A stretch of 64,000 bases of DNA from Candidatus Marinacidobacterium sp. (lineage in GTDB: Bacteria; Acidobacteriota; Vicinamibacteria; Marinacidobacterales; Marinacidobacteraceae), in NCBI GenBank assembly GCA_965220965.1, contig CBDCRI010000001.1, positions 256,001 to 320,000 of the forward strand, written 5' to 3'. A model generated the notes under the pieces. That model saw only the letters and a program-made list of their open reading frames with translations. It was not told the origin of the DNA and did no database searches. Shown here piece by piece: positions 530 to 20,071 of the stretch (its first letter is position 1; every line of letters starts with the position of its first letter). The translations under genes and the position numbers were made by a program.

Positions 530-607
530 TAAGAACCTCCAGCTTTGCCAGTGACAGCAGCATTGTGCATTGCGCCCAGCGCAGATGCGCGGGATTAATT
601 TTCTCGG

Positions 608-1332: not shown

Positions 1333-1370
1333 CAGTCCACTCCGTTGGTTGATGTCCGCGCCTTTCGAGG

Positions 1371-1628: not shown

Positions 1629-1661
1629 GGCAACCTTTCTCCTCTGCCAAGTGGGGCGCGA

Positions 1662-3184: not shown

Positions 3185-3217
3185 CCTTTCGCTCCATCCC
3201 CTGCGGCTGAGAGCCGC

Positions 3218-4426: not shown

Positions 4427-4432
4427 TGGGGG

Positions 4433-4789: not shown

Positions 4790-4972
4790 GGGCAGGTCTC
4801 TCCCTTCGTGGCTTGGTTCCAATGGCGCGCGCAAGGCAGGGCCGAAGCGCGTTCCGATTGGTCACACTTGCATTATACCATAGTCGCCGCGCGCCCCCTC
4901 CAAGGCGGCGGGAGACGCATTGCCCGGCCGCCGTCCGATCAAGCCGCCCGTGAAGGCTGGGCCGCGGCAGGC

Positions 4973-5449
4973 TCAAGGCGCCGTGCCGGCGTGCCGGCCG
5001 GCCCTCCCTGCGGAAGCCGGCCCGGGGGCCTGAACCGCCGGCTGGCGCTGGCCGGCCTCGCTGGCAACCCTTGCGCAGCCGCCGATCAGGGCAATCACGC
5101 GCCCGCCCTCCAGCTTGCCGTCCTGCGGGCCGGGCTGGTCAATGCCGTGCCAAAAGGCCACCGCATCCCATGCCCCGGTGTGCGACGCCACATCGACCAA
5201 GGCTTCCTTGTCGAGCTTGCCGGAGCCGTAGCAGTACTCCGCATCCTCCGCCATTTCAGCCGGCGGGGAGAAGGAGTCCGCCTGAGGCGGGCCTCCGGCA
5301 TCCAGCACCCGCAAGGCATCAAGGTCCACTTCGATCGGCACGACACGCTCCCCGTAAAGGCCTGCCAGCGCCCGGGAGTCGGTCGCCCAAAGAAAACGAT
5401 CCGGGTCGATTTCGAAGTCCTCGTCGTCGGTGCCGTGGTAGAAGATCAT
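4973..5449 (-). CDS. putative ADP-ribosyltransferase-fold protein
   Basis: N-terminal FYHGT followed by WAT...A..YG..V.P pattern of phage ART domains. Confidence 0.45.
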   Translation of the reverse strand: MIFYHGTDDEDFEIDPDRFLWATDSRALAGLYGERVVPIEVDLDALRVLDAGGPPQADSFSPPAEMAEDAEYCYGSGKLDKEALVDVASHTGAWDAVAFWHGIDQPGPQDGKLEGGRVIALIGGCARVASEAGQRQPAVQAPGPASAGRAGRHAGTAP

Positions 5450-5495
5450 TGCGCCTCGTCAGCTCAGCCGCAGGCTTGGAAGCGGTCCGGCAGGC

Positions 5496-6776
5496 TCAGG
5501 GCGCCGGTCCGGAGGGCCGCTTCGCCGCCTGCGCCGGAGCGGGCTTGACCTGCGCGGTCCGCCGCTCCTCCGGCGTGGCCGGCGCGCCGCCGCGCGGCAG
5601 GAACAGCCAGTCCTTTTCGTCCGCCACGCGCATCAGGTGCTTGTCGGACAGGCAATGGTTGCGCGCCATCTGGAACCGTCGGCCAAGCCAGTCGGCCAGG
5701 TCCTCGAAGGCGCGCTCGACCTCATGCACCAAGGGCGCGGGCACGGGCCGGCCGGTGCTCACGGGGCGCAGGTCGGCGACCTCCAGAAGGTCGCCCCAGC
5801 CCGCGGGCCGGCACACGCAGCAAAGCGCCTCGCCGTCCGGCATTCGAGCCTTCTCCAGGGCCTGGGCGATCCCATGCAGCTGGTCGTCCACCGGAAATTT
5901 GATTCTCATCAGCGCCTCCGCGTAGAGGGCGGTTATCCACAAGCCGCTGAACGCGCCGTTTCGGCCCTCGCCGTGCCACAGCACCGCGTGCGGGCCGGTC
6001 CTGAGCTCCAAGCCAAGGTACATGGCAGCCTGCCGGAAGTCCTGCTTCGCGGCCTCTGCCCAGTCGCCCCTGTCGGTGGCGTGGAACCACTGCCTGACGG
6101 CCACCTTGCCCGCCGCCCCGAGGGCCTCGAAGCGCACCGGGGCCGGATTGGCCGGCTCCCCGGGCGAGAGCGGCGCCCCGCCGCGCGCCGGGAAGCGCCA
6201 TCCCCTGCGGTCGGCGTCGTGCCGCACCCGGCGCTCCGTGGTGCCTGGGAGGAAGTCGCCGTCGATGGCCTCGCCGGCCCACTCGGCCAGCCTGTTGAGC
6301 TGCGCCTCCACTTGGTCGAGCTCGCGAGGGGGGGCGATCTCCCCGCGGCACGTCACCGCAGTGGAGACGTGCACGCGGCCGCCGCTGGCCGTCACCCGGA
6401 GCGGCAGCCAAGGGCGGAGCCCGGGCGCCAGGGAGGCCAGCCGCTGCGCGACGTGCTCGAGCGTTACGCCCTTCCAGAGCGCTTGGTGGTCCCGCAGGCC
6501 TCCCGCCCTCAGGGCCTCGGGCGACGGCGCCGCCCAATGCCCCTCGAATCCCGCGGGGCCAGGATGGGCCGAGCGCAGGGCCTGGCCTGCGGGCCCGGAG
6601 CCGTCGTGGTCCAGCGTCAGGCCCATGAGGCCGAGGAGCTCCATGACGCGCTCCTCGGCCGCGGTGGGGATGCTTGAGAGGCCGCCGCCCCCGAGCATCT
6701 CGTACCAGTGGCAGGTCGCCCGCCGGGCGGGCTCGGAGAGCTGGGAGAAGGCCAACCCCTCGGCTTGTTCGGTCAT
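5496..6776 (-). CDS. hypothetical protein with an internally duplicated domain
   Basis: FSQLSEPARRATCHWY vs FEALGAAGKVAVRQWF; both halves end in W.F...GGAP; AAGGGG RBS. Confidence 0.65.
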   Translation of the reverse strand: MTEQAEGLAFSQLSEPARRATCHWYEMLGGGGLSSIPTAAEERVMELLGLMGLTLDHDGSGPAGQALRSAHPGPAGFEGHWAAPSPEALRAGGLRDHQALWKGVTLEHVAQRLASLAPGLRPWLPLRVTASGGRVHVSTAVTCRGEIAPPRELDQVEAQLNRLAEWAGEAIDGDFLPGTTERRVRHDADRRGWRFPARGGAPLSPGEPANPAPVRFEALGAAGKVAVRQWFHATDRGDWAEAAKQDFRQAAMYLGLELRTGPHAVLWHGEGRNGAFSGLWITALYAEALMRIKFPVDDQLHGIAQALEKARMPDGEALCCVCRPAGWGDLLEVADLRPVSTGRPVPAPLVHEVERAFEDLADWLGRRFQMARNHCLSDKHLMRVADEKDWLFLPRGGAPATPEERRTAQVKPAPAQAAKRPSGPAP

Positions 6777-7224
6777 CGTCCCCTTTCGCAACGCGGCGTC
6801 GCTGCGATTGTAGCAACCAAGCGGCGCGCCACTCCTCAGCAGCGCGGCCCCAGTCAGTCCTCCCTGACGATCTCCCCCGAGGCCTTGGCCACCAGCGCGG
6901 CCACCGCCCTGTCCGCATCAAGGCCAGGCGGCGGCGGACGGCATCCCCGGGGTCGCGCCGCAGCCGCCAGTCCCTGCGGGCGGCGCGGCGGCCAAGTTCA
7001 CCGAGCGGCACGGCAGGCCCCGTGCATCCGGGTCGCCGGGCCTGGCGCCCGGTTCCGGGTGCGCGTTCCGCGCCCCTTCCGGCCTTTCCGTGCGGACCTC
7101 CCGTTCGCCGCCGCGTCGAATGGGCCATTCCATCCGCGTGGCCGTCCGGCCGCGCTTCCGGCCCAAGGGCTCCGCGCGAAGCCGCCTTGCTAAAATCGGG
7201 AGGCAAGGCCTTGGGAAGTTTCGC

Positions 7225-7479
7225 ATGGCGGTTTTGAGCTTGGACCAGTTCGAGGGGCTGAGGGCCGTTCCCGGCGACCCCGGCCATGTCGTGGAGGTGG
7301 GCCTGAACGAGGCCGACGTCGGACGCCTGCGGGCGTTGGTGGCCGCGTTCTCGGCGGACGGCGACCCGGCCAGCGTCGGCGAGGTGGTGCGCGCCTCGAT
7401 CCGCGCCCTGCACCGTCGGGAGTGCCGCGGCGGGGACGCCGTCGCAAGCCTGCAGGATGGACGCAGTGCGCGGCAGTGA
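7225..7479 (+). CDS. small ribbon-helix-helix-like protein
   Basis: V.L...LRALV...SVGEVVRASIRAL pattern; TGCTAAAAT promoter upstream. Confidence 0.4.
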   Translation: MAVLSLDQFEGLRAVPGDPGHVVEVGLNEADVGRLRALVAAFSADGDPASVGEVVRASIRALHRRECRGGDAVASLQDGRSARQ

Positions 7480-8380
7480 AGGAGATGCCGACGGCCGCGA
7501 GGCGATCGGCTACAGGGACTTCTGGAACGCGGCCGCGGGCCGCTGGCGCGACTTCGACCGGGTGAGGGTCCTGCCGGACGCTTGGATGGACCAAGTGCGC
7601 GGGAGCCACGTGCCGCCCCACCTGGTGGGGGCGAGCTTCCGGTCCGCCGACCTGTCGGGCGTGTCGCTGGCCGGCTGGAGCCTGCCCGGGGCGGACTTCT
7701 CGGATGCGCTTCTCCTAGAGGCCGACTGCTCGGAGGCGCAGATGACGGGCGCCGACTTCCGCCGCGCCCGGCTGGCGGGGGCCCGGTTCGTGAACGCCGA
7801 GCTGCCGTTCGCCGAGTACGCCTTCGCCGACGCGGAAGGGGCCTCCTTCCAAGGCGCCGCCGCGCCGTTCGCCCGCTGGCCGGAAGCCTCGCCGCCGCCG
7901 GAGGGCGAGGGGCGCCGCTCCCTGGCCCATGCCCGGAAGGGCTTCCCTCCGGCGGCTGGGGAGCCTTTCTGGGGCAGCGATCCGCACGCCCGCCAAGTTG
8001 CCCTGGCGGATTGGGAGGCGCGCTCGCTCGGCCTGCCGCCGCCCACGGCCGAAGTCATGGCGCGCGCCCTGTTCGCGCTCAGGCGCCTGGCCCGGGCGGC
8101 GGGGGCCGCCCCCGTGACCTTCGCCCTGTCCGACTGCGGCGGCGTCGGCATTGCGGTCGCATCGCCCCGCGACCCGCGGCGGCGCCGCGACGGCCTGGTC
8201 CTGCGGGTCAGCAACGTGCAGGACCACTTGACCGTCCACATGCTCTCCGGAGGCGTCCTGCGCCAATTCCTCATCGGCTCCCAGGAGCGCGACATGGCCG
8301 AGGGGGTGCCGAACGCCTGCGCAGCCCTGGCGGCGCACGCCTCCGCGAAGTCGCCCCGCCCGGCGGGCCTCGCCCCCTAG
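7457..8380 (+). CDS. pentapeptide-repeat protein
   Basis: ASFRS ADLSG ... ADFSD ... ADFRR ARLAG ARFVN repeats. Confidence 0.75.
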   Translation: MDAVRGSEGDADGREAIGYRDFWNAAAGRWRDFDRVRVLPDAWMDQVRGSHVPPHLVGASFRSADLSGVSLAGWSLPGADFSDALLLEADCSEAQMTGADFRRARLAGARFVNAELPFAEYAFADAEGASFQGAAAPFARWPEASPPPEGEGRRSLAHARKGFPPAAGEPFWGSDPHARQVALADWEARSLGLPPPTAEVMARALFALRRLARAAGAAPVTFALSDCGGVGIAVASPRDPRRRRDGLVLRVSNVQDHLTVHMLSGGVLRQFLIGSQERDMAEGVPNACAALAAHASAKSPRPAGLAP

Positions 8381-8485
8381 CCAGCCGGCGCGGCCCGGTT
8401 CGGAGCGCGGCGCTGCTACAATGCCAGCCATGGCAGTGGACACGCCCAGCGTGGCGCCGGACGCGTTCGTCCGAAGGCGGGCGCC

Positions 8486-9253
8486 GTGAGCGGCGCCGCC
8501 CCCATCACCCTGAGGGCCGGGCTGCAGGCCGACTTCGAGGCCGTCGACGCCGTCCTGAGCGCCTTTCCGATCCGCGGCGCCCTGCTCGGCGGAGGCACCG
8601 TGCTCGCCGCCCTCTGGGACCACAGGGACTCCAGGGACCTCGACCTCTTCGTGCCGCGCGGCGTCGCTTCCGCCCTGCCGAAGGGCACGCCGTCCGCGCT
8701 CGCCGGGCGGCTTCGGGAGCGGCTCGGCGCCGAGGTGATGCGCGTCGGGGAGCGGCTCGACGAGGACGTCTGGGTGGTGTCCGCCCGGCTGCCGGGAGGG
8801 ACGCCGCTCTCGATCCACTGCCTGACCCACGACCGGCACGCCCAAGGGCCGCCGATCCATAACGGCGCGGTGCCGTCGCTCAGCGTCGCCGACATCATGC
8901 GGGGCAAGCTCGCGGGGCGGGCCGTCATCGCCCACCTGCTCGCGGGCACCAGCCACGACCGGCCGCCCATCCGCGACCTCTACGACGTGGCGGTGTGCGC
9001 GCAGCTGGCCCCGGAGGCGCTTGCGGCGGTCCTAGGGGAGATGGGCGCGGAGTACCGGGCCATGGCCGCGGCGGCCTTCCTGGCGGCGCCGCCGGACTTC
9101 CACAAGCTCGACCCCCAGCCGATCATGAACCAGAGGTTCGACGTCGACCTGCAGGGGCTGCCGCAAGCCGTGGGGAGGGCGGTCGAGGCCGGCGACCCCG
9201 GCCTGATCCCGGCCGCGGCGCGGCTGCCCAATCCGAACGGCCCGGCCCCGTGA
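8486..9253 (+). CDS. AbiEii/DUF1814-family nucleotidyltransferase (type IV TA toxin-like)
   Basis: LGGGTVLA, HRDSRDLDLF, GKL, RDLYD motifs. Confidence 0.8.
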   Translation: MSGAAPITLRAGLQADFEAVDAVLSAFPIRGALLGGGTVLAALWDHRDSRDLDLFVPRGVASALPKGTPSALAGRLRERLGAEVMRVGERLDEDVWVVSARLPGGTPLSIHCLTHDRHAQGPPIHNGAVPSLSVADIMRGKLAGRAVIAHLLAGTSHDRPPIRDLYDVAVCAQLAPEALAAVLGEMGAEYRAMAAAAFLAAPPDFHKLDPQPIMNQRFDVDLQGLPQAVGRAVEAGDPGLIPAAARLPNPNGPAP

Positions 9254-9855
9254 CCAGGCGGCCGACCATCCCCACCGGGCTCACCCACAGCGGGATGCCC
9301 TTGGACGTCCTGATCGAGAGCAACTGCCTGATGCCGGACGGCTGCCCCCGGTGGGACGCTCCCGTGATGCGCGAGCCGCTGCTTCCGTTGGCGCGCTTCG
9401 ACCGCCCGGATTTGCGCGAGACGCCGGCCTGGGCGACCGGCGCGGATGCCCTGTTTTCGGTGGACTTGTTCCTCGCCAAGCGCTGCGCCGGCCTTGACCT
9501 CGGGATGCGGGCGTCCGGCGCGGAGGTCCGCGCCGCGCTGCGCGCCGGGGCGTTCGACGCACGCTGCCGGGCCACCCTGGAATGGACGCTCTCCTCCTGC
9601 CCCCGCACGGAGTTCCCCGACCTGCTCGGCCGCGGGGGAATCGCGATCTACGACATGGCCCGCTGCTTCTGGACGGCCTTCGACGGCCACGCCTTCTCCT
9701 TCGCGGCCTGGCTCAACCAGTGGGGGCGCGACGCCGCCCGCCCGCCGCCCGGCCAGGACTACGAGTACCGGAACTTCCCGCTCACGCGGTCATGGGTGGC
9801 GGCCGGGCGGCCGCCGGTTTGGCCGCCGCCGGCGGAGACCCCGCCTAGCGACTGA
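9250..9855 (+). CDS. hypothetical protein coupled to AbiEii-like gene (candidate antitoxin)
   Basis: GTGA start/stop overlap at 9250-9253. Confidence 0.55.
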   Translation: MTRRPTIPTGLTHSGMPLDVLIESNCLMPDGCPRWDAPVMREPLLPLARFDRPDLRETPAWATGADALFSVDLFLAKRCAGLDLGMRASGAEVRAALRAGAFDARCRATLEWTLSSCPRTEFPDLLGRGGIAIYDMARCFWTAFDGHAFSFAAWLNQWGRDAARPPPGQDYEYRNFPLTRSWVAAGRPPVWPPPAETPPSD

Positions 9856-10459
9856 CAGGGCACCCCGCGGCGGCGGCGCCCTCGCGGCGGCCGTCCGCCT
9901 CCTCGCCCCAGGCCGTCCAGCCCTCGCGCCCGCCCCGGGCGAAGAGCTCCAGGTAAGGAGGCCTAGAGCAGGCCTCGATCACGGCGTACTGCTCATCGGG
10001 CTTGCGGGAGTGCTCGCGCTTGCGCGAGGCGATGAGGTTGACTTGGCGCCGGCCGGCCTCGAGCGTCCGCGCCCGCCTGCCGCGGACGCCGAACAGCAGG
10101 ATCTCCGTCACGTTGCGGAAGTAGTGGCCGAGGCCGCGCCCGTCGGAGCCGCCGTCCTTGCGCACCTTGTGCCAGACCAGGTTCGCCTTGTACTCGAAGC
10201 CCCAGGCGGCGAGCACGTCCAGCCCCGCAGGCAGGAGGGCGTTCGGCACCCACAGGTAGCAGTGCGCCACGTCCTCCACGTGCGCCGCCACCGGCAGGGC
10301 GCGGATCTCGTCCATGGAGAGGGTGGCGTAGCGGGCCAGCCGGCGGTGCTCCGGGGAGGCCTTGCCGGTTCGGTGCCGGAAGCGCCAAGGCGGGTCCGCC
10401 AGCACGGTGCGGAAGCGCCGGCCCGCCAGGCGGCGCGCCAGATCGTCGGCGGCGCTCAC
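9845..10459 (-). CDS. MT-A70 family adenine methyltransferase
   Basis: LADPPW, HCYLWV, WGFEYK, REHSRKP, LELFAR. Confidence 0.9.
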   Translation of the reverse strand: MSAADDLARRLAGRRFRTVLADPPWRFRHRTGKASPEHRRLARYATLSMDEIRALPVAAHVEDVAHCYLWVPNALLPAGLDVLAAWGFEYKANLVWHKVRKDGGSDGRGLGHYFRNVTEILLFGVRGRRARTLEAGRRQVNLIASRKREHSRKPDEQYAVIEACSRPPYLELFARGGREGWTAWGEEADGRREGAAAAGCPVSR

Positions 10460-10506
10460 GGCGCTTCGCCCACGGGCGCCCGCCCCTGCGCGCGAGCCGC
10501 CATCCC

Positions 10507-10728
10507 TCACGCCTCCTTGGCGTCGGCGAGCGCGCGCCGCAGCCACGTCGCGGTGATTCGCGCGGCGTCCTGCGGGGCCGCCTTGCGCAGGAACGGCAGG
10601 AGCAGGCTCGCCGGGTCGATGCGGGCCAGCGCCACGTCCCTTGCCGGCAGCGGCTTGGTCTTGTAGAGCAAGGCGTCGCCGTTGCGGAAGTAGAAGGCGT
10701 TGCTCCTGTCGACGGTCACCTCGATCAT
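10507..10728 (-). CDS. hypothetical protein
   Basis: GGAGG RBS, MIEVTVDRS. Confidence 0.5.
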   Translation of the reverse strand: MIEVTVDRSNAFYFRNGDALLYKTKPLPARDVALARIDPASLLLPFLRKAAPQDAARITATWLRRALADAKEA

Positions 10729-10759
10729 TGCCCCTCCCAAGGTCGGCCCGCGGCGCGGC

Positions 10760-11053
10760 TCAGTCGGCCTGCGGGCCTTGCGGCCTGGATGCGGGGCGGC
10801 CCAGGTCGTCCACCGTCGCGCCCTCCGCCCGCATTCGGGCGGCGAACACCTCAAGCGCCTCCCGGTCGGTGCCGTGCCATGCGCCGCCGCCGAACAGGTC
10901 CACGGCGCCCCGAGCCTGCTGGTTGACGATCAGCAGGCCCTGCGGGTTGCGGTAGCAGAGCCTCTCCTTGCGGCCTTCCGGGCCGACGAAGAGGCCGTCC
11001 TGGGTGACTGTTGCGTAGATGGTCCGGCCGTTGAGCGTTGCGGTCTTCGTCAT
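10760..11053 (-). CDS. hypothetical protein
   Basis: GGAGG RBS, 97 aa. Confidence 0.55.
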   Translation of the reverse strand: MTKTATLNGRTIYATVTQDGLFVGPEGRKERLCYRNPQGLLIVNQQARGAVDLFGGGAWHGTDREALEVFAARMRAEGATVDDLGRPASRPQGPQAD

Positions 11054-11150
11054 GCCCCTCCCCCCTTGGTTCCGGCTTTCGCAGGCATGCCCGCAGCGTG
11101 CCGCTGAGGGCCGGCTGGCGCAACCCGGGATGGGCCTGCCGGGGCCGGGG

Positions 11151-11339
11151 TCACCCGTCCTCCCCCACCACGATGTGCAGGCAGCGCTCGCACTGGCTCA
11201 ATTCCGGCAGCTCGTCGTCCCCGGACATGAAGCCACCGCACTTCGGGCAGTCGCCGCGCCATTCCCCGTCGCGCAGCATGGCGTCCCTGGCGCTGGCCTG
11301 CTCGGCGATTCCCAACGTTCGCTCAAAGCCCGATTTCAT
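11151..11339 (-). CDS. small zinc-ribbon protein
   Basis: CPKCG...CERC. Confidence 0.45.
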   Translation of the reverse strand: MKSGFERTLGIAEQASARDAMLRDGEWRGDCPKCGGFMSGDDELPELSQCERCLHIVVGEDG

Positions 11340-11440
11340 GTCCGCACGCCTTCGAACAGCTGCTGCTCCGGCGGCCTGACCGCCACGCGCCCTGCCGGAC
11401 TGACGACGCCGCAGCTTCCGTCCGGACACCCCAGGCCCGT

Positions 11441-12121
11441 TCAGCCACCGGCGCCCGCCTTGGCAATGGGCCGGCCCTGAACAAGCGAAGCAGGGGGGCT
11501 CTGGCCGGGTTCGCCGGGGCCGTTCCCCGCCGCCAAGGCGGCGAGGCCCCGAACCATCCCTTCGCACGGGTCGGAGAACGCGGCGCGGAAGCGGCCAACC
11601 TTGGCGGCGTCGGCTTGGTGCAGCCGCAGGTCATCGTCCGTCAGGAACGCCTCTCCGTCGGCGACTATGCCCAGCTCTATCAACTGGCCAGGGGAGTCCA
11701 CCATGATGGGCGGATCGGGCACGAACAGGACGCTGGCGGTGCGCCCCTCCGCCGGCTCCCACCAGCTGGCGAGCCTGCCCCGCTCCCCATCGACCCCAAT
11801 GTCGCGGAATAGCAGAATGCCGTCCCTGTCCTCACGCCATCGGGCCAGGGCCCACGCAGCGAGGTCGTGGCCGAAACGGTCGCGCGCGAGGGAAAAGAGT
11901 TCCCACACGCGTGGCGTCTCCGCCCCTTCCCCCAGCGGGGCCTCGCAGTAGTGGGGCAGCCGTGCCATGAGCGTCTCCCGGCCGCCGTCGCCCGGGATGA
12001 GCGCCCAGCGATCCAGCCACCAGTCGGGGGCTGTAGCCCACAGCCAGGCAAGGCCGCCAAGAATAAGGGTCACGCAACACGTAGTCGCTGCCAAGAGCAT
12101 CTGCTTGCTTTCATTCCTCAT
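11441..12121 (-). CDS. membrane-anchored hypothetical protein
   Basis: N-terminal hydrophobic helix; AGGGAG RBS. Confidence 0.6.
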   Translation of the reverse strand: MRNESKQMLLAATTCCVTLILGGLAWLWATAPDWWLDRWALIPGDGGRETLMARLPHYCEAPLGEGAETPRVWELFSLARDRFGHDLAAWALARWREDRDGILLFRDIGVDGERGRLASWWEPAEGRTASVLFVPDPPIMVDSPGQLIELGIVADGEAFLTDDDLRLHQADAAKVGRFRAAFSDPCEGMVRGLAALAAGNGPGEPGQSPPASLVQGRPIAKAGAGG

Positions 12122-12177
12122 GGTCGTTCTCCCTTTCGGTCAGTTTCAAGTTTAGCGCCCAGGCGTCGCCGCGCCGC

Positions 12178-14763
12178 TCATCCGCACTGCGAGTCGCCGC
12201 AGGACAGGCACTCCAGGCAGCCGCCCTGCCGGACCACGGACCCGGGGGCGCCGCAGGCGCCGCAGTCCGCGCCCGGCGGCGGCCCGGCCGCGCCGTCCCC
12301 GTCCGTGCCGGACAGCTCGGCCATGAAGGTCTCTATGGCCACGCCGATCTCGCTGACCATGGAGCCCAGCAGGCCGCTCTCGCCGCTCACGGACCGCCCG
12401 AAGGCGGCCCCCTCTGAGCGGATCGACTTCAGCTCGCCGACCACCCCGCGGATGTCCACGCCGGAGCGCATCAGCTTGCTCAGGACGATCATGAGCGCGT
12501 CCTCCCACTCCCGGCAGGTGTTGTTGTCGGAGCGGAAGAACACCTCGTGCAGGCGCCGCTCGTCGCGGTCCGCGTTGATGGTGACGTAGCCGCGCTTGTT
12601 GCCCACCTCCAAGCGGTAGGTGGGGCCGTCGAGGCGCACCGGGCGCCGCCGGGCCGCCACCGGCACCGCCTTGGCCGCGTCGCCCGAGGCCCACTCGACG
12701 ATGCGCCCCGCGATGCGCCTGGCGTCCGCCGGCCAGTCGGCGCCGCCCGGCTCGCCCGGCTCGTAGTAGCCCTGGTTGAGGGCCTCGTGCAGGACCGCGG
12801 CCAGCGTCGGGGGGCGGCGGTCGTGGGAGACGGGCGCATCCCCCCGCAGCCGCGTCCAGCCGTCGGCGGTGCGGAAGGCCACGGTGCGCGCGGCCAGCTC
12901 CTCCGGGTCGATCAGCACGCCGACCCGCTCATCGGAGGGCAGGTAGATCGTGACGCCCTTCAAGCCCAGCTCCCACGCCCGCTCGTAGACGCCCACCATG
13001 TCCTCGTAGGAGGTGCCGGGCGGCAGGTTGATGGTCTTGGAGACGGCGCTGTCCATCCACTCCTGAACCGCCGCCTGCATGGCCAGGTGCTCGTCCGGCG
13101 ACACCTGCTCGGCGGTGACCCACACCTCCGGCGGGTCGGCGTCCGGGCCCGCCAGCGCCTCCAGGCAGAGCAGTTCCTTGGCGCGCATCGTGACCGACTC
13201 CTTGGCCTCCCCCGCCGCCCCGGTGACCGTGCGCAGGTGGGACATCATGAAGGTCGGCTCGATGCCGGAGGAGGCGTTGTTCGAGATGAAGCTGATGGTG
13301 CCGGTCGGCGCTATCGAGGTGGCGTGGGTCCACCGCAGCCCGTGCCTGCGGGCCTGCGCGAACCAGTCCTCAGCGAGCGCCCCGGCCTCGGCCAGCCGGG
13401 CGAAGTAGGGGGACGCCAGGGCGGCCTCCAGGGCCTTTTCGTCCTCGAAGAAGGGCGCCCGCCCCTTGGCCTTGGCCAGGCCGAGGGCGGCGCGCCACGA
13501 GGCCGCGGCGAGCGCCCGGGAGACCCGCGAGGCGAACGCCACCGCCTCCGGGGAGCCGTAGCGCACGCCGAGCAGGTTCAGCGCGCTGCCCAGCCCGAGG
13601 AAGCCCATGCCGTGGCGGCGCTTGGACTCGATCTCGCGGCGCTGGCCCTCCAGCGGCAGGCCGTTCACCTCGACCACGTTGTCGAGCAGGCGGCTGAAAC
13701 CCTCGGCGCTGGCCTCGAAGGCGGCGAAGTCGAACTTGGCCCGCGGCGTGAGCGGGCGGCGCACGTAGGCGGTCAGGTCGATGCTGCCGAGCAGGCAGGC
13801 GCCGTGCGGCGGCAGCGGCTGCTCGCCGCAGGGGTTGGTGGCCCACAGGCGCTCGCTGTCGCGCAGGGGGTTCCACTCGTTGATCCGGTCCACGAAGATC
13901 ACGCCCGGGTCGGAGTCGCTGTGGGCGTGGCGCATCACGGCCTCCCACAGGTCGCGCGCCCGAACCGTCCGCCAGACGCGGCACAGGTAGCGGCCGGACT
14001 CGTCCAGCGTGTAGTTCCCGTCCGGCCCCAGCCGGTCCCAGTGCGCCCAGCGCGTCGCCTCCGCCGGCGGCTCGGGGTCGTTGCGGTGCACCGGGAAGAT
14101 CAGCTCGTGGGCGAAGTCGGAGCGCACCGCCTCCATGAACGCGTCGGAGACCAGCACGCTGAGGTTGAAGTGGCGCAGCTCGCCCTTCTTCGCGACCTTG
14201 TCCTTGGCGTTGACGAAGTCGAACACGTCGGGGTGCCGGCAGTCGAGGGTGGCCATCTGCGCCCCGCGGCGCCCGCCCCCGGAGACGATCGTGGCGCACG
14301 AGGACTCGAACATGCGCATCCAGCCGACGACGCCCCCGGAGGTGGCGCCGATGCCGTTGACGGGCGCGCCCGCCGGGCGGATGGTGCCGAAGTGGTAGCC
14401 GATGCCGCAGCCCGCGCTCAGCGTCACCAGCGCCTCGCCCTGGGCGGCGGCGATGCCCTCGATGTCGTCGGTGACCGCGCGGCTGACCGTGCAGTTGATC
14501 GCCGAGCCCTTGGACCGCTCCGGGTTGGCGGCGGCCGACAGGATGCGCCCGCCCGGGCGCCAGCCCAGCTCGCGCATGCCGCGCTCGAACTCGGCCGCCA
14601 GCGCCGCCCGGTCCACGCCGGGCTCGTCGTCGGCCTCCGCCAAGGCGGCGGCCACGCGCCGCCAGGTGTCCTCCGGGGCGCGCTCGCCCGGGGCGGCGTA
14701 CTTGTCCCGCCAGGTGCCCAGGGAGGGCGCCTGAAGGGGCATCTCGTGAAGTCTCGGGGCCAT
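12178..14763 (-). CDS. nrdJ: class II (adenosylcobalamin-dependent) ribonucleotide reductase with C-terminal TSCPD/Zn-ribbon region
   Basis: GGRIL, INC, RRGAQM, NPCGEQPL, CLLGS, SIAPTGTIS, SKTIN, C-terminal CxxC...CxxC; GGAGG RBS at 14771-14775; no nrdB nearby. Confidence 0.9.
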   Translation of the reverse strand: MAPRLHEMPLQAPSLGTWRDKYAAPGERAPEDTWRRVAAALAEADDEPGVDRAALAAEFERGMRELGWRPGGRILSAAANPERSKGSAINCTVSRAVTDDIEGIAAAQGEALVTLSAGCGIGYHFGTIRPAGAPVNGIGATSGGVVGWMRMFESSCATIVSGGGRRGAQMATLDCRHPDVFDFVNAKDKVAKKGELRHFNLSVLVSDAFMEAVRSDFAHELIFPVHRNDPEPPAEATRWAHWDRLGPDGNYTLDESGRYLCRVWRTVRARDLWEAVMRHAHSDSDPGVIFVDRINEWNPLRDSERLWATNPCGEQPLPPHGACLLGSIDLTAYVRRPLTPRAKFDFAAFEASAEGFSRLLDNVVEVNGLPLEGQRREIESKRRHGMGFLGLGSALNLLGVRYGSPEAVAFASRVSRALAAASWRAALGLAKAKGRAPFFEDEKALEAALASPYFARLAEAGALAEDWFAQARRHGLRWTHATSIAPTGTISFISNNASSGIEPTFMMSHLRTVTGAAGEAKESVTMRAKELLCLEALAGPDADPPEVWVTAEQVSPDEHLAMQAAVQEWMDSAVSKTINLPPGTSYEDMVGVYERAWELGLKGVTIYLPSDERVGVLIDPEELAARTVAFRTADGWTRLRGDAPVSHDRRPPTLAAVLHEALNQGYYEPGEPGGADWPADARRIAGRIVEWASGDAAKAVPVAARRRPVRLDGPTYRLEVGNKRGYVTINADRDERRLHEVFFRSDNNTCREWEDALMIVLSKLMRSGVDIRGVVGELKSIRSEGAAFGRSVSGESGLLGSMVSEIGVAIETFMAELSGTDGDGAAGPPPGADCGACGAPGSVVRQGGCLECLSCGDSQCG

Positions 14764-14800
14764 GCGCCATCCTCCGCCACGCAGGGAAGTAGATATCTGT

Positions 14801-14860
14801 ATTATACCATACTTTCCACATCTTGGGTCCCCGCCGCCCGCCAGGCGCAAGATGTTGCGT
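14801..14860 (-). promoter_or_regulatory. nrdJ promoter (extended -10 TGGTATAAT) with tandem NrdR boxes
   Basis: CCACATCTTG (14816-14825) and CAAGATGTTG (14848-14857) match CWAnATnTWG (one mismatch / perfect), 32 bp apart. Confidence 0.7.
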
Positions 14861-14954
14861 CCCGGTCCGGCGCGTGCGCGGCTGCCGGCCGCTGGACGGC
14901 GGGCTCCCGGCGAGGGACAATCCCCTGCCCTCCCCGTGGACGAATGGACCCGCA

Positions 14955-15122
14955 ATGCAAGCCGACAGGAAGGGGCGCGAAGCCCCGCTGACCGCTGAGG
15001 AGATCGCCAAGCTCGACGATCGGGACATCGACGTGAGCGACATCCCGGAGCTTGGCGAGGACTTCCGGCGGTCCGCGAGGCGCGTTGATCCCGATTCCGA
15101 GGAACGGGGCGCAAGCGACTGA
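14955..15122 (+). pseudogene. truncated BrnA-like antitoxin N-terminus
   Basis: DDRDIDVSDIPELGEDF motif; C-terminal DNA-binding part absent. Confidence 0.5.
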
Positions 15123-15158
15123 TTCGGAAGGGGCGGGAATCCCCTCGGCCGCCTGCCC

Positions 15159-15902
15159 TCAGGGGGCCGGGGCCGCGCCGCGCTCGACGTGCTCGATGCG
15201 CGCCAGGGTGGTCGCCCCCTCGGGGCGCTCGCCGGCCAGGATGGCCCGCGCCAGCCGCCTGATCCGGGACAGCGCCACCGGCCGGTAGTCCAGCTGCTCG
15301 ACCGAGACGTTGACGTGCGGCGAGTCGGGCGCCTTGACGGTCCGGTGCTGGTGGCCGTGGACGTTGACGTGCCCGGCGGGGACGCGCGGCAGCGGCGCGT
15401 GGGTCCAGACCAGCGGCGGGTCGCCGGGCGAGACGAGCAGCGCCACCGTACGGTCGAACCCGCCCATGCGCGACCGGCCCAGCCCGTCCACGTCGTGGTT
15501 GCCGGCCACCAGAACCTTGGTGGCGCCGGGCGCTTGGCGCACGCTCGCCCACGTCTCGTCGCTCACCGCCGCGCCCAGGGCGAAGTCGCCGACGCAGACC
15601 ATGACCTCATCCGGCCGGACGTCCAGCCGCCAGCTCTCCCACAGCGCCGAGTCCATCTCCCCGACGCCGTCGAAGGGGCGGTCCTGGTAGCCGATGATGT
15701 TGGCGTGGCCCAGGTGCAGGTCGGACCACGCCTTGACGGCGCCGTCCGGCGCATCGAGCGTCCCCGCCCCGTGCAGCTCCAGCGCCCGGCGCATGGACGA
15801 CAGGCGCTTGCCGCCCCGGCCGAGCGCCTCCCGCAGGTCGTCGCGGTACAGCTCGGCCAGCTGCTTGGGGCGGGGCCTTGCGGGCCCCTTTCGTCGTGCC
15901 AT
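15159..15902 (-). CDS. calcineurin-like metallophosphoesterase
   Basis: SDLHLGH, GDF, GNHD, THAP, HGHQH; AAGGAG RBS 8 nt before ATG 15902. Confidence 0.9.
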   Translation of the reverse strand: MARRKGPARPRPKQLAELYRDDLREALGRGGKRLSSMRRALELHGAGTLDAPDGAVKAWSDLHLGHANIIGYQDRPFDGVGEMDSALWESWRLDVRPDEVMVCVGDFALGAAVSDETWASVRQAPGATKVLVAGNHDVDGLGRSRMGGFDRTVALLVSPGDPPLVWTHAPLPRVPAGHVNVHGHQHRTVKAPDSPHVNVSVEQLDYRPVALSRIRRLARAILAGERPEGATTLARIEHVERGAAPAP

Positions 15903-15964
15903 GGTCATCGCTCCTTCGAAGGGTCGGCATTTTACAGCGCCTGCCGCGCCGGGGCGGCGGGGAA

Positions 15965-16038
15965 TGGTCGGCCCGGAAGGAATCGAACCTTCGTCAGCAG
16001 GGTAAGAGCCTGGTGCGCAGCCACTACGCCACGAGCCG
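15965..16038 (-). tRNA. tRNA-Lys(CTT)
   Basis: cloverleaf, loop CT-CTT-AC, TTCGATT T-loop, encoded CCA. Confidence 0.8.
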
Positions 16039-16100
16039 AGTTCTCGGGTTGGTGCCTGGAGGCGGTCCCGGGCCGGCGGGCGGGGCGCCCGGGAGGGGAA

Positions 16101-16176
16101 TGGCCTGCCCAGGTGGACTCGAACCACCGACCTGCGCCTCCGCAGGGCGCCGCTCTTTCCGCTGAGCTATGGGCAG
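16101..16176 (-). tRNA. tRNA-Arg(GCG)
   Basis: GCGCC-CT-GCG-GA-GGCGC arm, encoded CCA. Confidence 0.9.
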
Positions 16177-16193
16177 GAGGCGGGCTTGCATGG

Positions 16194-16281
16194 TGGCGGA
16201 GGCTGTGGGGATCGAACCCACACACCCTTTCGAGCATCACCGGCCTCCAACCGGCTTAGCGCGCCAGCCGTGCGAGCCTCC
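16194..16281 (-). tRNA. tRNA-Ser(GGA), atypical D-arm
   Basis: GGAGGCT/AGCCTCC acceptor, G73, long variable arm, loop TT-GGA-GG. Confidence 0.8.
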
Positions 16282-16331
16282 GTGGTTTCCTTCGCGGCGC
16301 CCCGCTTGCCGGGAGCGGGGCGCCGGCCGCG

Positions 16332-16419
16332 TGGCGGAGGCTGTGGGGGTCGAACCCACACGCCCTTTCGAGCATCACCGGGTTCAAGCCGGCTTAGCGC
16401 GCCAACTGTGCGAGCCTCC
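16332..16419 (-). tRNA. tRNA-Ser(TGA), atypical D-arm
   Basis: near-identical body to the Ser(GGA) gene, loop CT-TGA-AC. Confidence 0.8.
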
Positions 16420-16428
16420 GCGATCGAG

Positions 16429-16504
16429 TGGCCTGCCCGGGAGGACTCGAACCTCCGTCCTGCGCCTTAGAAGGGCGCTGCTCCATCCGCTGAGCCACGG
16501 GCAG
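16429..16504 (-). tRNA. tRNA-Arg(TCT)
   Basis: GCGCC-CT-TCT-AA-GGCGC arm, encoded CCA. Confidence 0.9.
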
Positions 16505-16516
16505 TGGGAACGAAAC

Positions 16517-16603
16517 TGGCGGAGAGGGCGGGATTCGAACCCGCGCAGGCTTTCACCCTCCCGCTTAGCAAGCGGGCGCCATAAACCGCTCGGCCACCTC
16601 TCC
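16517..16603 (-). tRNA. tRNA-Ser(GCT)
   Basis: canonical type II serine tRNA, GGAGAGG acceptor, loop TT-GCT-AA. Confidence 0.9.
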
Positions 16604-16655
16604 GGTTCTTGCGCTGCCGGAGGCGCGCCCGCGACGCGGGCCGTTCCCGGCGAAT

Positions 16656-16745
16656 TGGCGGAGGCTGTAGGGATCGAACCCACACGGCCCTCTCGGGCCA
16701 TCACCCGTTTCGAGCGGGATAAGCACGCCAGCCTTGCGAGCCTCC
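16656..16745 (-). tRNA. tRNA-Ser(CGA), atypical D-arm
   Basis: GGAGGCT acceptor, loop CT-CGA-AA, long variable arm. Confidence 0.8.
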
Positions 16746-16750
16746 TGACT

Positions 16751-16824
16751 TGGTGGAGCGACAGGGACTTGAACCCTGATCTCCTGCCTGCGACGCAGGG
16801 GTTCTCCCGTTGAACCATCGCCCC
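16751..16824 (-). tRNA. tRNA-Ala(CGC)
   Basis: G3:U70 alanine identity pair, CCTGC-GT-CGC-AG-GCAGG. Confidence 0.9.
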
Positions 16825-16858
16825 GTGCGGCGCCGGCCGGACCGCCGGCGCCCGCCAC

Positions 16859-16943
16859 TGGTACAGGGAGAGGGAGTCGAACCCCCACAGCCCGAAGGCC
16901 CGTGGTTTACAGCCACGTGAGCTCGCCATTGCTCAGCCCCTGC
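16859..16943 (-). tRNA. tRNA-Tyr(GTA)
   Basis: CGTGG-CT-GTA-AA-CCACG, variable arm, A73-CCA. Confidence 0.85.
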
Positions 16944-17006
16944 GAAAGGACCGGGCGCAGGGGCTCCCCGGCGACGGGGAGCCCAGCGCCCAAGACACCA
17001 ACCCGA

Positions 17007-17018
17007 TTGTGAAAGATC
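17007..17018 (-). promoter_or_regulatory. boxA-like antitermination site
   Basis: GATCTTTCACAA resembles rrn boxA; lies between the leader terminator and the first tRNA. Confidence 0.55.
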
Positions 17019-17032
17019 GCTTTCCGGGGCCG

Positions 17033-17074
17033 AAAACGAAGAAGCCCCGGAGGTTTTGAACCTGCCAGGGCTTC
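17033..17074 (-). terminator. intrinsic terminator in the leader of the tRNA operon (attenuator)
   Basis: GAAGCCCTGG/CCGGGGCTTC 10-bp stem plus inner AGGTT/AACCT, followed by TTCGTTTT. Confidence 0.65.
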
Positions 17075-17143
17075 GGAGGGGTACTTGTGTGCTCCGTCTG
17101 TCAGGCTCAAGGCCTTCCAGACGCAGTTCGCAGCTGGAACGGC

Positions 17144-17224
17144 CTACACGGCAACGCCGCGGGAACGCTTTCTTGAAGCGCCCGCTTGCCGAGGACTATA
17201 GAACCCGTTTTGCGAAGTAAGCAT
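17144..17224 (-). CDS. putative leader peptide MLTSQNGFYSPRQAGASRKRSRGVAV
   Basis: ATG 9 nt after TATAAT; contains codons read by all nine downstream tRNAs; precedes a terminator. Confidence 0.65.
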   Translation of the reverse strand: MLTSQNGFYSPRQAGASRKRSRGVAV

Positions 17225-17233
17225 GATGGCTGA

Positions 17234-17263
17234 ATTATACCCCATTGGCCGAAGTCGGGGCAA
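17234..17263 (-). promoter_or_regulatory. sigma70 promoter of the tRNA operon
   Basis: TTGCCC-18 nt-TATAAT. Confidence 0.65.
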
Positions 17264-17358
17264 ATCGAAGTCTTGTCCAACGAGAAGTGAGCCTGAAGCA
17301 AGGGATGGTTTCCAGCGTGAAGCGAGCCCAGCCAGCGGGCTCCACTCTGCTCGGCGGT

Positions 17359-18486
17359 TCAGGCGTCGGGGGCATCGGCCAGCCGCTGAACTGCCGCGGA
17401 GTAGAATTCGGGAACGACCTCCGCACTGCGACACGCCCGATCAAGGCGAAGCGAGCACACCGCCGCTGGACACAGGCCGCCGAAGGGTTCCCAAACCGCG
17501 TCGCCGGGGTCAGTGGTCGCACTGATCGACCTCTCCACGAATTCCAGCGGCTTTTGGCTGCCGTGCAGGCTCTTGTACTTCCACCGCATTCCCTGACGCT
17601 CCCCGTTGATCCGTTCCTTGCCGGCCACCTGTGACTTGCGCCACACGTTGGTGACCCCGGCGGAGCAGCGGAACTTTGCGCGCATGCGGGACCATTGCTT
17701 GGCCGTTGTCGGCTGCTTGCCGTCTTGGCTGAAATAGGGTTTGCCGGCGGAGTGTCCGTGCTTGTTGGCGTAGTCAACGAGCCGTGCGAACGCCTCCGGC
17801 GGTGGGTAGTACCAGAGGTGATCGGCGGTTAGGTACTTTCGCGTGGCGGCATTGGCGACGCCGCAGGCATCGTTGGCCAAGCGCAAGGGCAGCCCGGCGC
17901 GGCGCCACTCGTGGCGGAGCCACTCCTGCATGGTCAGCGGCTTGCCGGACTCGGACGTGAAGCTCGCGGCCTTGACGTACTGGGCGCACACTTCCGTCAC
18001 CACGGGGAATTTCCGAAGCGTGCGGGTGTTGGCATTGCCAGCGATGTGGCCCAAGCCCTTGTCCCAGATGTGGCAGCTTCGGTACTCCCAGCCGTGCTCG
18101 GCCAGCAGGGGGTGAACGGTGGCCCAGCCGAGCTCGGAGTTCCAGAACCACAGCGTCGTCTCAGGCGTTGACCGCCTGGCCCAAGCCTCGACGTGAGGGC
18201 GGTACCAGTCAACGAGGCCATGGGCGGAGTGCAGGTCCCCCGGGAATCCGCTCAGGCCGCACGGCCCGTCCGCGATGATGCATGTCGGCGCCGGCCACTG
18301 TCCGTAGAGGGACTCCGCAGGACCAAAGTGAATCGTTGAAGCGGCTCGCTGGAAGGACTGGGGGTCAATCCACGCGGATGACGAAGCGTCCTCCATGCCG
18401 GTCGGCGCCGCATTCGTGCCGATTGGGGGGAATGGAGCTTGTGGTTCCGGAAACGGCGACCCTTGGCTGTCCGATTCACGCATCAT
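17359..18486 (-). CDS. N6/N4 (beta-class) DNA methyltransferase with altered catalytic motif
   Basis: ADGPCG at motif IV, HGSQKP, VWEPFGG. Confidence 0.8.
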   Translation of the reverse strand: MMRESDSQGSPFPEPQAPFPPIGTNAAPTGMEDASSSAWIDPQSFQRAASTIHFGPAESLYGQWPAPTCIIADGPCGLSGFPGDLHSAHGLVDWYRPHVEAWARRSTPETTLWFWNSELGWATVHPLLAEHGWEYRSCHIWDKGLGHIAGNANTRTLRKFPVVTEVCAQYVKAASFTSESGKPLTMQEWLRHEWRRAGLPLRLANDACGVANAATRKYLTADHLWYYPPPEAFARLVDYANKHGHSAGKPYFSQDGKQPTTAKQWSRMRAKFRCSAGVTNVWRKSQVAGKERINGERQGMRWKYKSLHGSQKPLEFVERSISATTDPGDAVWEPFGGLCPAAVCSLRLDRACRSAEVVPEFYSAAVQRLADAPDA

Positions 18487-18542
18487 GTCCGTTGACCCGA
18501 AGCTTCATTGTACGTGGGTTGAATCCCAAGCGGTGGCTGGCG

Positions 18543-19010
18543 ATGCAGCGGTTGTCGGAGCAGATCGGTCGAGTCCTGAAAAACGACAGGAGCGAGCGCT
18601 TGATTTCGTTCCTGCATGAGCCGACGCGCCGGCTCCCCAAACAACCGGAGCGCGGCCCTCGCTTGGATGAGCCATCCGGCGCAAAAGCCTGGCGTGATTG
18701 CCTCTAAGTGCCTGAAGGGCCATCGACACGTGCTCGCGCCCCGCTTCGCGACTGGCAGCGCCAAGGCATGCGACCTGATGAAAGCCTCCATTTGGAAGGT
18801 TGACGACTCCGGAGGCCATGCGCCTTCGCAACGGCATTGCCGGCGCCCCATCCCTGCTTGAGACGGATGCAACGCCGCTGGCGCAGCGGCTTAGGGGAGA
18901 GTTCGGCACGAACTGGACCAAAGCCGAGGGCCGTGACGAATTCGCCATGGGCGGCAGGACGCGTTTCCATGAAGGCCACCTGCGGAATTCCTGCTGCGCC
19001 CTGCTGAGCG
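18543..19010 (+). pseudogene. tcmP: degraded three-Cys-motif partner (TcmP-like) gene
   Basis: fragments in three frames: SERLISF..EP, LMKASIWKVDDSG, LRGEFG...TRFHEGHLR; adjacent to DUF5131. Confidence 0.5.
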
Positions 19011-19072
19011 CAAGGGCGAGATTTCAGTGCTCCGCCCGCAAGGGGGGAAGGGCCTCCCGGCGGGGAGGGACA

Positions 19073-19909
19073 TCAAAACCCGCTTCGACTGGCCGGCAAG
19101 CCGTCCCAAGTCCTGCCGCCGAGAACGCGACCGGCCGCCTTCTTGCCGAATCGGCCCATAGGGGCGGAATGGGCGCCCCCATTGACCACGGCCCTTGGCA
19201 CTGCCCCGGGCACCGCATCGACCGGCGCCCAGTCCCCCCATTGCTTGAAATGGAAGGGCGTGCCGTGCGCTGCGCACTCGTCCCGGATGCCATGGAACCA
19301 ACTGGGATCGCTCGGCCTCGCCTGCGGGCCGCTTTCACCGCCGGCGATGACCCATTGGACGGACCCGGACTCCAACCAAGGCCCGAGCTCAACTTGGTCG
19401 AGAAGCGGTTCACAGGAAACGAACCGAATGCGCGCACCCGCATGGGCAAGGTGGGGAAGGCGCTTGTCCGCCCAACGCTGGCTTTCAACTGTGGCGCCAA
19501 GCCACACGTTGGCAGGCCAGTCGCCCTTCCAGGGCACCAGCCGCTGCGCCAAATGGGGCCGTTTGGTCAGCAGCAGCCAATCCAGATTTGGCGTCGCTTC
19601 GATGAGCTCCCACAACCGACGCCTCCAAGGCGCCAACCCCTTCCCCCACTCGAAGACATCCGCCATCGATGCGCAGAAAACGCGAAATCGCGTTCCGGTT
19701 CGAGCCGCCTCCTGGTTCCACGCGTGAGGCTGCCGCCAATACGCGACGCTTTGAAAGCGACGCGGCTTCCCGGCGGACCAGACGTCAAGCCCCAGACGCC
19801 TTGCCCAGGCTTCAGCGTAGCAGTGGTCGCAGGCCGGAGAGACCTTTGTGCAACCCCACCATGGATTGAAGGTGTGGTCCGTCCATTCGATCCTAGAATC
19901 ACGCGCCAT
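19073..19909 (-). CDS. DUF5131 / phage Gp37-Gp68 family protein
   Basis: IEWTDHTFNPWWGCTKVSPACDHCYAE, SMADVF, LLTKRP, SCEPLL, GGESG, FKQWG. Confidence 0.92.
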   Translation of the reverse strand: MARDSRIEWTDHTFNPWWGCTKVSPACDHCYAEAWARRLGLDVWSAGKPRRFQSVAYWRQPHAWNQEAARTGTRFRVFCASMADVFEWGKGLAPWRRRLWELIEATPNLDWLLLTKRPHLAQRLVPWKGDWPANVWLGATVESQRWADKRLPHLAHAGARIRFVSCEPLLDQVELGPWLESGSVQWVIAGGESGPQARPSDPSWFHGIRDECAAHGTPFHFKQWGDWAPVDAVPGAVPRAVVNGGAHSAPMGRFGKKAAGRVLGGRTWDGLPASRSGF

Positions 19910-20071
19910 GGAGCGATCCTCGCCAGTTGCTGAAGGGTTATCCCCAAAACCCACATATGGTCACATGTACAGCTTACCGCATGTTGGCAGCGAATGGACC
20001 TGCCCGCCAGTGGGACGAATGAACCGTACGGAAGGCGCGGGCGGCGCCAAGGGCCGGCGCGGCGGCGAAGG

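Follow-up and report, generated by a model that had tools for sequence, protein, structure and literature searches.

The 64,000-nucleotide (nt) stretch analysed here, called the window, covers bases 256001-320000 of the second replicon of Candidatus Marinacidobacterium sp., which is plasmid-like and has 363 kb and 73% G+C in a genome that totals 3.25 Mb in two contigs. On its minus strand, a spacer of 415 nt separates a DNA methylase gene from an array of nine tRNA genes, and our subject is the candidate leader that lies in this spacer. Read along the minus strand, a promoter is followed by an open reading frame (ORF) of 26 codons, hairpins, a terminator, a 12-mer resembling boxA, a strong hairpin and then the nine tRNA genes (Table 1). 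A first-pass annotation had seen mutually exclusive terminator and antiterminator folds and a boxA motif here; every motif string that it named was found on the minus strand where it had been placed.

Table 1 Features of the tRNA leader and its surroundings (window coordinates; energies from folding of the minus-strand RNA; MFE, minimum free energy fold)
Feature	Position	Strand	Remarks
N6/N4 DNA methylase gene	18486-17359	minus	upstream of leader
Sigma-70-like promoter, TTGCCC-18 nt-TATAAT	17234..17263 (-35 17263-17258, -10 17239-17234)	minus	10/12 matches
Leader ORF, 26 codons + TAG (MLTSQNGFYSPRQAGASRKRSRGVAV)	17144..17224 (ATG 17224, TAG 17146-17144)	minus	
Hairpin 1	17149..17191	minus	wholly within the ORF; -21.6 kcal/mol
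Codons 17-22 (TCA AGA AAG CGT TCC CGC)	17159..17176	minus	six consecutive array-read codons; top and 3' side of hairpin 1
Hairpin 2 (arms 2a 17145-17134, 2b 17122-17110)	17110..17145	minus	-20.1 to -20.6 kcal/mol
2b:3 hairpin (GUCUG..CAGAC, AGGC/GCCU)	17096..17122	minus	-13.8 kcal/mol; sequesters the antiterminator 5' arm once 2a is covered
Antiterminator UUGAGCCUG/CAGGUUCAA, inner CAG/CUG and CGGAG/CUCCG	17056..17110	minus	-19.0 kcal/mol
Intrinsic-terminator-like hairpin, stem 17074-17041, tail UUCGUUUU 17040-17033	17033..17074	minus	15 pairs, one bulged C
boxA-like GATCTTTCACAA	17007..17018	minus	unpaired in MFE; occurs once in genome
Strong hairpin, perfect 10-bp core GGGCTCCCCG-TCGC-CGGGGAGCCC 16984-16961	16955..16990	minus	-29.9 kcal/mol
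Nine-tRNA array: Tyr(gta), Ala(cgc), Ser(cga), Ser(gct), Arg(tct), Ser(tga), Ser(gga), Arg(gcg), Lys(ctt)	15965..16943	minus	
Phosphoesterase gene	15159..15902 (ATG 15902)	minus	Shine-Dalgarno GAAGGAG; phrog_547, E 7e-34
Class II ribonucleotide reductase gene	ORF 12178-15552	minus	behind phosphoesterase

The promoter match was the sole sigma-70-like site in 15500-18000, where 0.1 would be expected, and one of 2 such sites over positions 1-20000, where 0.5 would be expected; its 18-nt spacing is also that of the genome's own promoter for ribosomal RNA (rrn), TTGACC-18-TATACT. Between this promoter and the first tRNA gene, which begins at 16943, lies the terminator-like hairpin, with a stem of -23.4 kcal/mol (-24.8 kcal/mol with flanks). 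A simple terminator scan missed it because of its bulged C, and a loose scan for a stable hairpin with a T-rich tail returned 105 objects in 6.5 Mb of both strands, 6 of them, including this one, on the minus strand of the replicon. The leader as a whole (317 nt) folds with a z of -4.68, and none of 100 dinucleotide shuffles was as stable.

Upstream of the terminator, hairpin 1 is built from the pairings CGGCAA 17191/TTGCCG 17154, GCGGG 17185/CCCGC 17163 and CGCTT 17180/AAGCG 17170, and hairpin 2, which begins inside the stop codon of the ORF, from AGGCC 17145/GGCCT 17114 and TTCCAG 17139/CTGGAA 17120. The core arms of the antiterminator, written as DNA, are TTGAGCCTG at 17110 and CAGGTTCAA at 17064. 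At -19.0 kcal/mol against -23.4 kcal/mol for the terminator stem, this helix is not energetically negligible, which the first-pass annotation had named as an outcome that would speak against its proposal. That annotation had also held that the alternative helix excludes hairpin 2, and here the claim needs to be narrowed: the 9-bp core and hairpin 2 are both present in the MFE of transcripts whose 3' ends lie at 17056-17049, and only the outward extension, CTGG-AGG/CCT-CCGG, is incompatible with hairpin 2.

The codons of the leader ORF correspond to the tRNAs encoded downstream. Its 25 codons after the ATG serve all nine tRNAs of the array (TCG, TAT, AGT, GCG, TCA, AGA, AAG, CGT/CGC and TCC), so that the regulatory codons match the tRNA supply of the operon, but in a variant form with many different codons and none repeated as a run. 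Coverage of all nine was found in 16 of the 5009 small ORFs of the genome. When the leader was shuffled with dinucleotides preserved, any ORF covering the nine arose in 362 of 20000 shuffles with wobble codon sets and in 70 of 20000 with strict sets, while coverage of nine of nine together with a run of at least 6 arose in 7 of 20000. If nine tRNAs are drawn at random from the genome's 44 tRNA species, the probability that the ORF covers them is 4e-4 with strict and 4e-3 with loose sets. Among 25-codon windows on both strands of the 415-nt spacer, 8 or 9 tRNAs are covered only in the frame of the leader ORF. The match is thus rare under four different nulls, at 0.04-1.8%.

Masked folding gave the fold change a direction, which the first-pass annotation had been unable to settle by eye. 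The transcript was started at 17227 and a 28-nt ribosome footprint was blocked at each P-site codon in turn. In transcripts ending at 17056 or 17049, the antiterminator formed with a probability of 0.86-0.91 when no ribosome was present or when the P site stood at codons 1-22, of 0.26-0.65 with the P site at codons 23-24, and of 0.00-0.26 with the P site at codons 25-27. Hairpin 2 melts with the P site at codons 23-27, codon 22 being the last position at which it is kept, and the antiterminator is lost at the stop because the ribosome covers segment 2a and the freed 2b then pairs with the antiterminator 5' arm. In the growing transcript, folding has the antiterminator form first, before the 3' arm of the terminator exists. 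A stalled ribosome therefore keeps the antiterminator and a ribosome at the stop removes it, and the predicted polarity is read-through on stalling and termination on smooth translation, which is the homeostatic direction.

This behaviour was compared with that of 1500 dinucleotide shuffles in which the terminator was kept and the part upstream of it was shuffled. In the real leader, sequestration of the terminator arm is 0.89 with a stalled ribosome and 0.15 with a ribosome at the stop, a difference of 0.74. Sequestration reached 0.8 on stalling in 28 of the 1500 shuffles; a stalled-minus-stop difference of at least 0.5 was seen in 22, one of the opposite sign in 19, and one of at least 0.8 in a single shuffle. 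The motifs that the first-pass annotation described are real and non-random, and what the analysis shows is their sequence anatomy, their energies and a fold that varies with a masked footprint.

We tentatively propose, at something short of an even chance, that the leader is a transcription attenuator worked by the ribosome, and that it controls a mobile nine-tRNA array in place of genes for amino-acid biosynthesis. The proposal is coherent, with a single locus and thermodynamic modelling as its basis. We infer where transcription starts, that the ORF is translated, that transcripts terminate and that ribosome and polymerase are coupled. Transcription would start a few bases before the ATG, and translation of the ORF would be leaderless or almost so. 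The RNA behind the start of hairpin 2 could form four mutually exclusive helices in a chain, 2a:2b (hairpin 2), 2b:3, 3:4 (the antiterminator) and 4:5 (the terminator). With smooth translation to the stop, 2a would be covered, 2b:3 would form, the antiterminator would be blocked, and the terminator would fold and end the transcript near 17033. With a delay anywhere in codons 1-22, including the array-read codons 17-22, hairpin 2 would stay closed, the antiterminator would form ahead of the terminator 3' arm, and the polymerase would continue into the tRNA genes, with read-through probably extending to the phosphoesterase and ribonucleotide reductase genes behind the array. The array would in this way be switched on when the decoding of its own codons, or translation generally, slows.

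Several observations weigh against this proposal. The ORF has no Shine-Dalgarno sequence and so would need to be read as leaderless or nearly so, and the 9 nt that separate the -10 hexamer from the ATG are rather far for a truly leaderless start, leaving its translation unproven. It also includes rare codons for which the array has no tRNA (CTT, ACT, CAA, CCT, GCT and GTT), and its G+C content at third codon positions is far under that of the genome's genes, as would be seen in non-coding sequence. On the side of the RNA, the complete terminator has a probability of at least 0.96 at every ribosome position at equilibrium, so that a switch could only be kinetic; stepwise MFE folding favours the antiterminator only over a narrow window and brings up many long-range alternatives; and the antiterminator also forms without translation, so that the predicted default is read-through, unlike in the trp operon. 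The features were moreover picked post hoc out of a very large scan, and the small P values therefore overstate the case. Finally, this is a single locus: those contigs of other runs that include the stretch are identical to it, no variant of the leader was seen in the contigs of four runs, and the searches described next found no homologous leader, so that neither covariation nor conservation is available.

The leader is present as a single copy in its own genome, and no homologous leader was found in 60 relatives, where the only matches were of 32-35 nt to hairpin 4 of the leader and were taken as chance because the aligned places read as coding sequence. Nor was one found in a phylum set of 300 genomes, which includes three unpublished ones (G107, G083 and G209) and gave matches to single tRNAs only, or among the matches listed for the plasmids of PLSDB and for phages, which were likewise to single tRNAs only. 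Relatives of the methylase at 80 genome loci and 2 viral loci have no tRNA array alongside, and the same holds for relatives of the phosphoesterase at 1 viral locus and in 1 of 400 phylum genomes. For the reductase, 4 viral and 2 metagenome loci were collected, and no array was found in the 3 of these 6 that were scanned for tRNAs; a strict first look at 1e-50 found no reductase locus in 27 genomes of the family. Two viral pattern scans were made with motifs from the array tRNAs. One found nothing; the other returned two near-identical AT-rich IMG/VR contigs (L135 and L136) with a six-tRNA array (Arg tct, Leu taa, Ile tat, Met cat, Lys ttt and Gln ttg), in which the first 25 bases of the Arg tRNA fit the pattern derived from the two Arg tRNAs of the window, with N at four positions. 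This array, which has the 5' half of the Arg(tct) tRNA in common with the one in the window, stands directly behind a promoter-like TTGATA...TATAAT, with no leader, a contrast that also weighs against the proposal. Large plasmid arrays of 14 and 28 tRNAs were considered as a test of the codon idea and rejected, as they cover too many codons.

About 75 nt directly upstream of the -35 hexamer (17265-17340, minus strand) contain the direct repeat CT(T/C)GCTTCA(G/C)GCT twice, 24 nt apart. This element is single-copy in its own genome, and a relative in the family (G024) has it twice, inverted and 33.5 kb apart, with one copy about 215 nt behind an IS110-family transposase gene and the other in the neighbourhood of an integrase and of a reverse transcriptase of the group II intron type. 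Contigs from other metagenome runs match it with 2-11 differences, and assembly unitigs break there. The element may be the end of an insertion sequence that supplies the -35 hexamer, or a protein-binding site.

A doubtful but serious alternative to an attenuator is a structured untranslated 5' leader, in which promoter and terminator are real and the codon match of the ORF is a coincidence. The terminator would then dampen or insulate the array constitutively, or answer to a protein, a small RNA or Rho/Nus factors, and the hairpins would serve pausing, processing or precursor stability. Such a leader would sit well with the want of a Shine-Dalgarno sequence and the non-coding look of the ORF, with a terminator that wins at equilibrium at all ribosome positions on a rugged folding landscape, with a strong hairpin 12 nt before tRNA-Tyr that suits a role in processing or stability, and with the conserved, repeat-bearing element next to the -35 hexamer, a possible binding site or end of an insertion sequence. 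It leaves as coincidences an ORF-tRNA match that is rare under four nulls and confined to one frame, a stop codon exactly at the foot of hairpin 2, and a footprint-dependent fold switch that only 1-2% of shuffles match. We consider it very unlikely that the pieces are unrelated, with the terminator ending transcripts from the methylase or from an insertion-sequence remnant, the promoter-like site unused and the tRNAs driven from elsewhere. The methylase does lie upstream on the same strand, and the 75 bases in front of the -35 are similar to the element that occurs in two copies in the family relative, one of them next to an IS110-family transposase; however, the terminator lies at least 285 nt behind the methylase stop and also behind the best promoter match of the region, and by eye no better promoter was seen in 17033-16944. 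Chance, by which a GC-rich spacer folds into many hairpins and a large scan yields some attenuator look-alikes, seems to us highly improbable in view of the z of the fold, the rarity of terminator-like objects and of the promoter match, and the codon and switch statistics, even with the post hoc selection, the absence of conservation and the chance nature of the likeness to hairpin 4 elsewhere in its favour.

A further possibility, compatible with the other readings, is processive antitermination of the Nus type, in which binding of NusB/NusE to GAUCUUUCACAA, once the attenuator is passed, would protect the polymerase from Rho or from later terminators as it transcribes the untranslated array. 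It would make sense in a long untranslated transcript, where protection from Rho would be of use, and the motif is unique in the genome, unpaired in the MFE and matched to a 12-mer of E. coli type at 10 of 12 positions, the window containing 2 such matches against 0.68 expected. The hairpin that follows the motif has a UCGC loop and ends 12 nt before tRNA-Tyr. In a nut site of the lambda type, boxA is followed within a few bases by boxB, a short stem closed by a purine-rich pentaloop, whereas the hairpin here stands 22 nt downstream of the motif, with a 10-bp stem and the UCGC loop. Of the 11 positions of the published gamma-proteobacterial consensus GYTCTTTAANA (PMC5725501), the motif matches only 9 and departs at positions 2 and 8. 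The positions called important in PMC3177189, G2, C5 and U6, are kept, and the motif is like an rrn boxA in being a U-rich, single-stranded 12-mer early in an untranslated transcript. It is unlike one, so far as these sources describe it, in its two consensus mismatches, in differing from the family's own rrn boxA and in being followed, not preceded, by a hairpin. In 24 aligned rrn leaders of the family, the genome's own included, a hairpin is followed by GGTTC(A/T)(C/T)TTT(C/T)AAC(A/G)AGG, with which the tRNA leader has only CTTTCA and CAA in common, and these with a one-base gap; on the sense strand of its own rrn no match to the motif was found within 3 mismatches, and the CACAAT within the motif could equally be a weak -10 hexamer. 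Altogether, we judge a Nus role to be distinctly unlikely. Of the attenuation followed by rrn-style Nus antitermination that the first-pass annotation had put forward, the attenuation half is thus supported in silico, through promoter, ORF, terminator, antiterminator and polarity, and the Nus half is weak, with its match of 9 of 11 and its loose likeness to the family's rrn boxA; it may be taken as a lead, not as a finding.

Two side observations may be added. A helix of -8.8 kcal/mol (17017-17039, minus strand) can form between the U-rich terminator tail (UCGUUUUC) and the GAAAGCGA that closely follows it, and this helix takes in the initial two bases of the boxA-like motif. The rrn leaders of the family (L108-L131) keep a promoter, a short hairpin of the CGCCCTGCGGGGCG type, a boxA variant that differs from the E. 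coli consensus, and the block GCAGAGCGAGCTCAGTC.

The array itself is divergent from the tRNAs of the host. Eight of its nine anticodons also have a chromosomal tRNA copy, with which the identity is only 60-78%, and CCA is encoded in all nine array tRNAs, whereas many chromosomal tRNAs, within the limits called by ARAGORN, lack it. Odd anticodon loops are found in Ala (GTCGCAG), Ser(gga) (TTGGAGG), Ser(tga) (CTTGAAC) and Lys (CTCTTAC). Because of the divergence, the encoded CCA and the odd loops, the tRNA module, which has phage-type neighbours, looks acquired. By eye, the Arg and Lys tRNAs of the array begin with a C1 opposite G72, and the Ser tRNAs with cga, tga and gga anticodons and the two Arg tRNAs look like paralogues in their unaligned sequences.

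The phosphoesterase gene begins 62 nt behind the last tRNA, and since no terminator was seen in between, the two are probably co-transcribed. The longest reductase ORF, with its start at 15552, overlaps the phosphoesterase gene in another frame, and the true start probably lies downstream of 15159, since the reductase domains begin only at residue 278 of that ORF. A second reductase-like copy outside the window (G000:C2:213327-216236) is 50% identical and interrupted by three in-frame TGA codons. Many genes of defence or mobile type occur in three regions of the window (7457-10546, 37465-46434 and 55597-56580) and include a pentapeptide-repeat protein, an AbiEii toxin, an MT-A70 methylase, an SNF2 helicase, a 1735-amino-acid fusion of DEAD and UvrD, and a nucleotidyltransferase of the RlaP RNA-repair pathway. 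The G+C content dips at 16-20 kb, 46-50 kb and 60-64 kb.

Transcription attenuators with a leader peptide are known for the trp, his, leu, thr, pheA and ilv operons. They share with the proposed tRNA attenuator a promoter, a short ORF with regulatory codons, and an antiterminator that has a strand in common with a terminator of hairpin plus U-tract; in both, the position of the ribosome would choose the fold, with read-through on a stall and termination with a ribosome at the stop, which for the tRNA leader is a prediction. The differences are that the regulated genes here are tRNAs where those operons encode biosynthetic enzymes, that nine different codons, one per downstream tRNA, take the place of a run for one amino acid, and that the tRNA leader has five segments in place of four, no Shine-Dalgarno sequence and no known relatives. 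With five segments instead of four, the predicted default without translation becomes read-through. PMC1183508, to go by its abstract, reviews the leader-peptide attenuators of amino-acid operons. The proposed choice between terminator and antiterminator, linked to tRNA supply, is also like that of T-box leaders. Those leaders sense uncharged tRNA by direct binding, have no translated ORF and control synthetase and amino-acid genes; here the proposed sensor is a translated ORF, no Rfam family matched in the leader, and no T-box match was found in 16900-17400 even at E <= 10.

For the logic of the array, the closest precedent is the trn operon on a megaplasmid of Anabaena PCC 7120, which, according to PMC10272220, stays silent until translation-targeting antibiotics induce it by way of the repressor TrcR. 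It too is an accessory tRNA operon on a megaplasmid, redundant with housekeeping tRNAs and, as reported there, induced by stress. In the same text its control lies with a ribbon-helix-helix DNA-binding repressor at the promoter of 26 tRNA genes, where the present locus has a candidate cis-acting RNA plus ribosome and nine tRNA genes, and the analogy would thus be one of logic and not of mechanism. Phage and plasmid tRNA arrays have also been proposed as counter-defence against tRNA-cutting nucleases, in the available parts of PMC10264068, PMC11555353 and PMC12803027. The array resembles those described there in being mobile, in its divergent tRNAs with several odd anticodon loops and in its position next to phage-type genes. 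These parts of the papers describe tRNAs and no leader that senses tRNA supply; as counter-defence tRNAs of phages are documented, an inducible back-up array is a reasonable idea.

No example is known to us of tRNA genes whose transcription is under feedback from a translated leader that senses decoding capacity. Full-text searches of the literature, which leave out subscription journals, turned up no paper that connects a leader peptide or attenuator with tRNA arrays or operons in such a sense, and the sole overlap, PMC3082878, was unrelated and set aside. A more specific form of the attenuator proposal, which we think somewhat unlikely as a whole, would make the locus a self-sensing back-up tRNA operon. 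The leader ORF, with one codon per array tRNA, would act as a nine-input OR gate, any shortage would lead to transcription of the divergent replacement tRNAs, and the boxA-like site would keep the polymerase going. The shortage could come from an anticodon nuclease of a defence or competition system cutting a host tRNA; altered anticodon loops are present in some of the replacement tRNAs.

Promoter strength and growth-rate control are generally seen as what determines the output of tRNA genes. Should the attenuator proposal fail, the locus would be a mobile tRNA array with a structured leader of an ordinary kind. If it is true, the classic logic of attenuation would extend from amino-acid supply to tRNA supply, and the leader would do in cis what a repressor does in the stress induction of the Anabaena trn operon. 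It would also be a compact, portable sensor of tRNA availability. Mobile tRNA arrays could then be reserves that are released only when the tRNAs of the host fail, which would bear on the tRNA arms race among phages, plasmids and defence systems.

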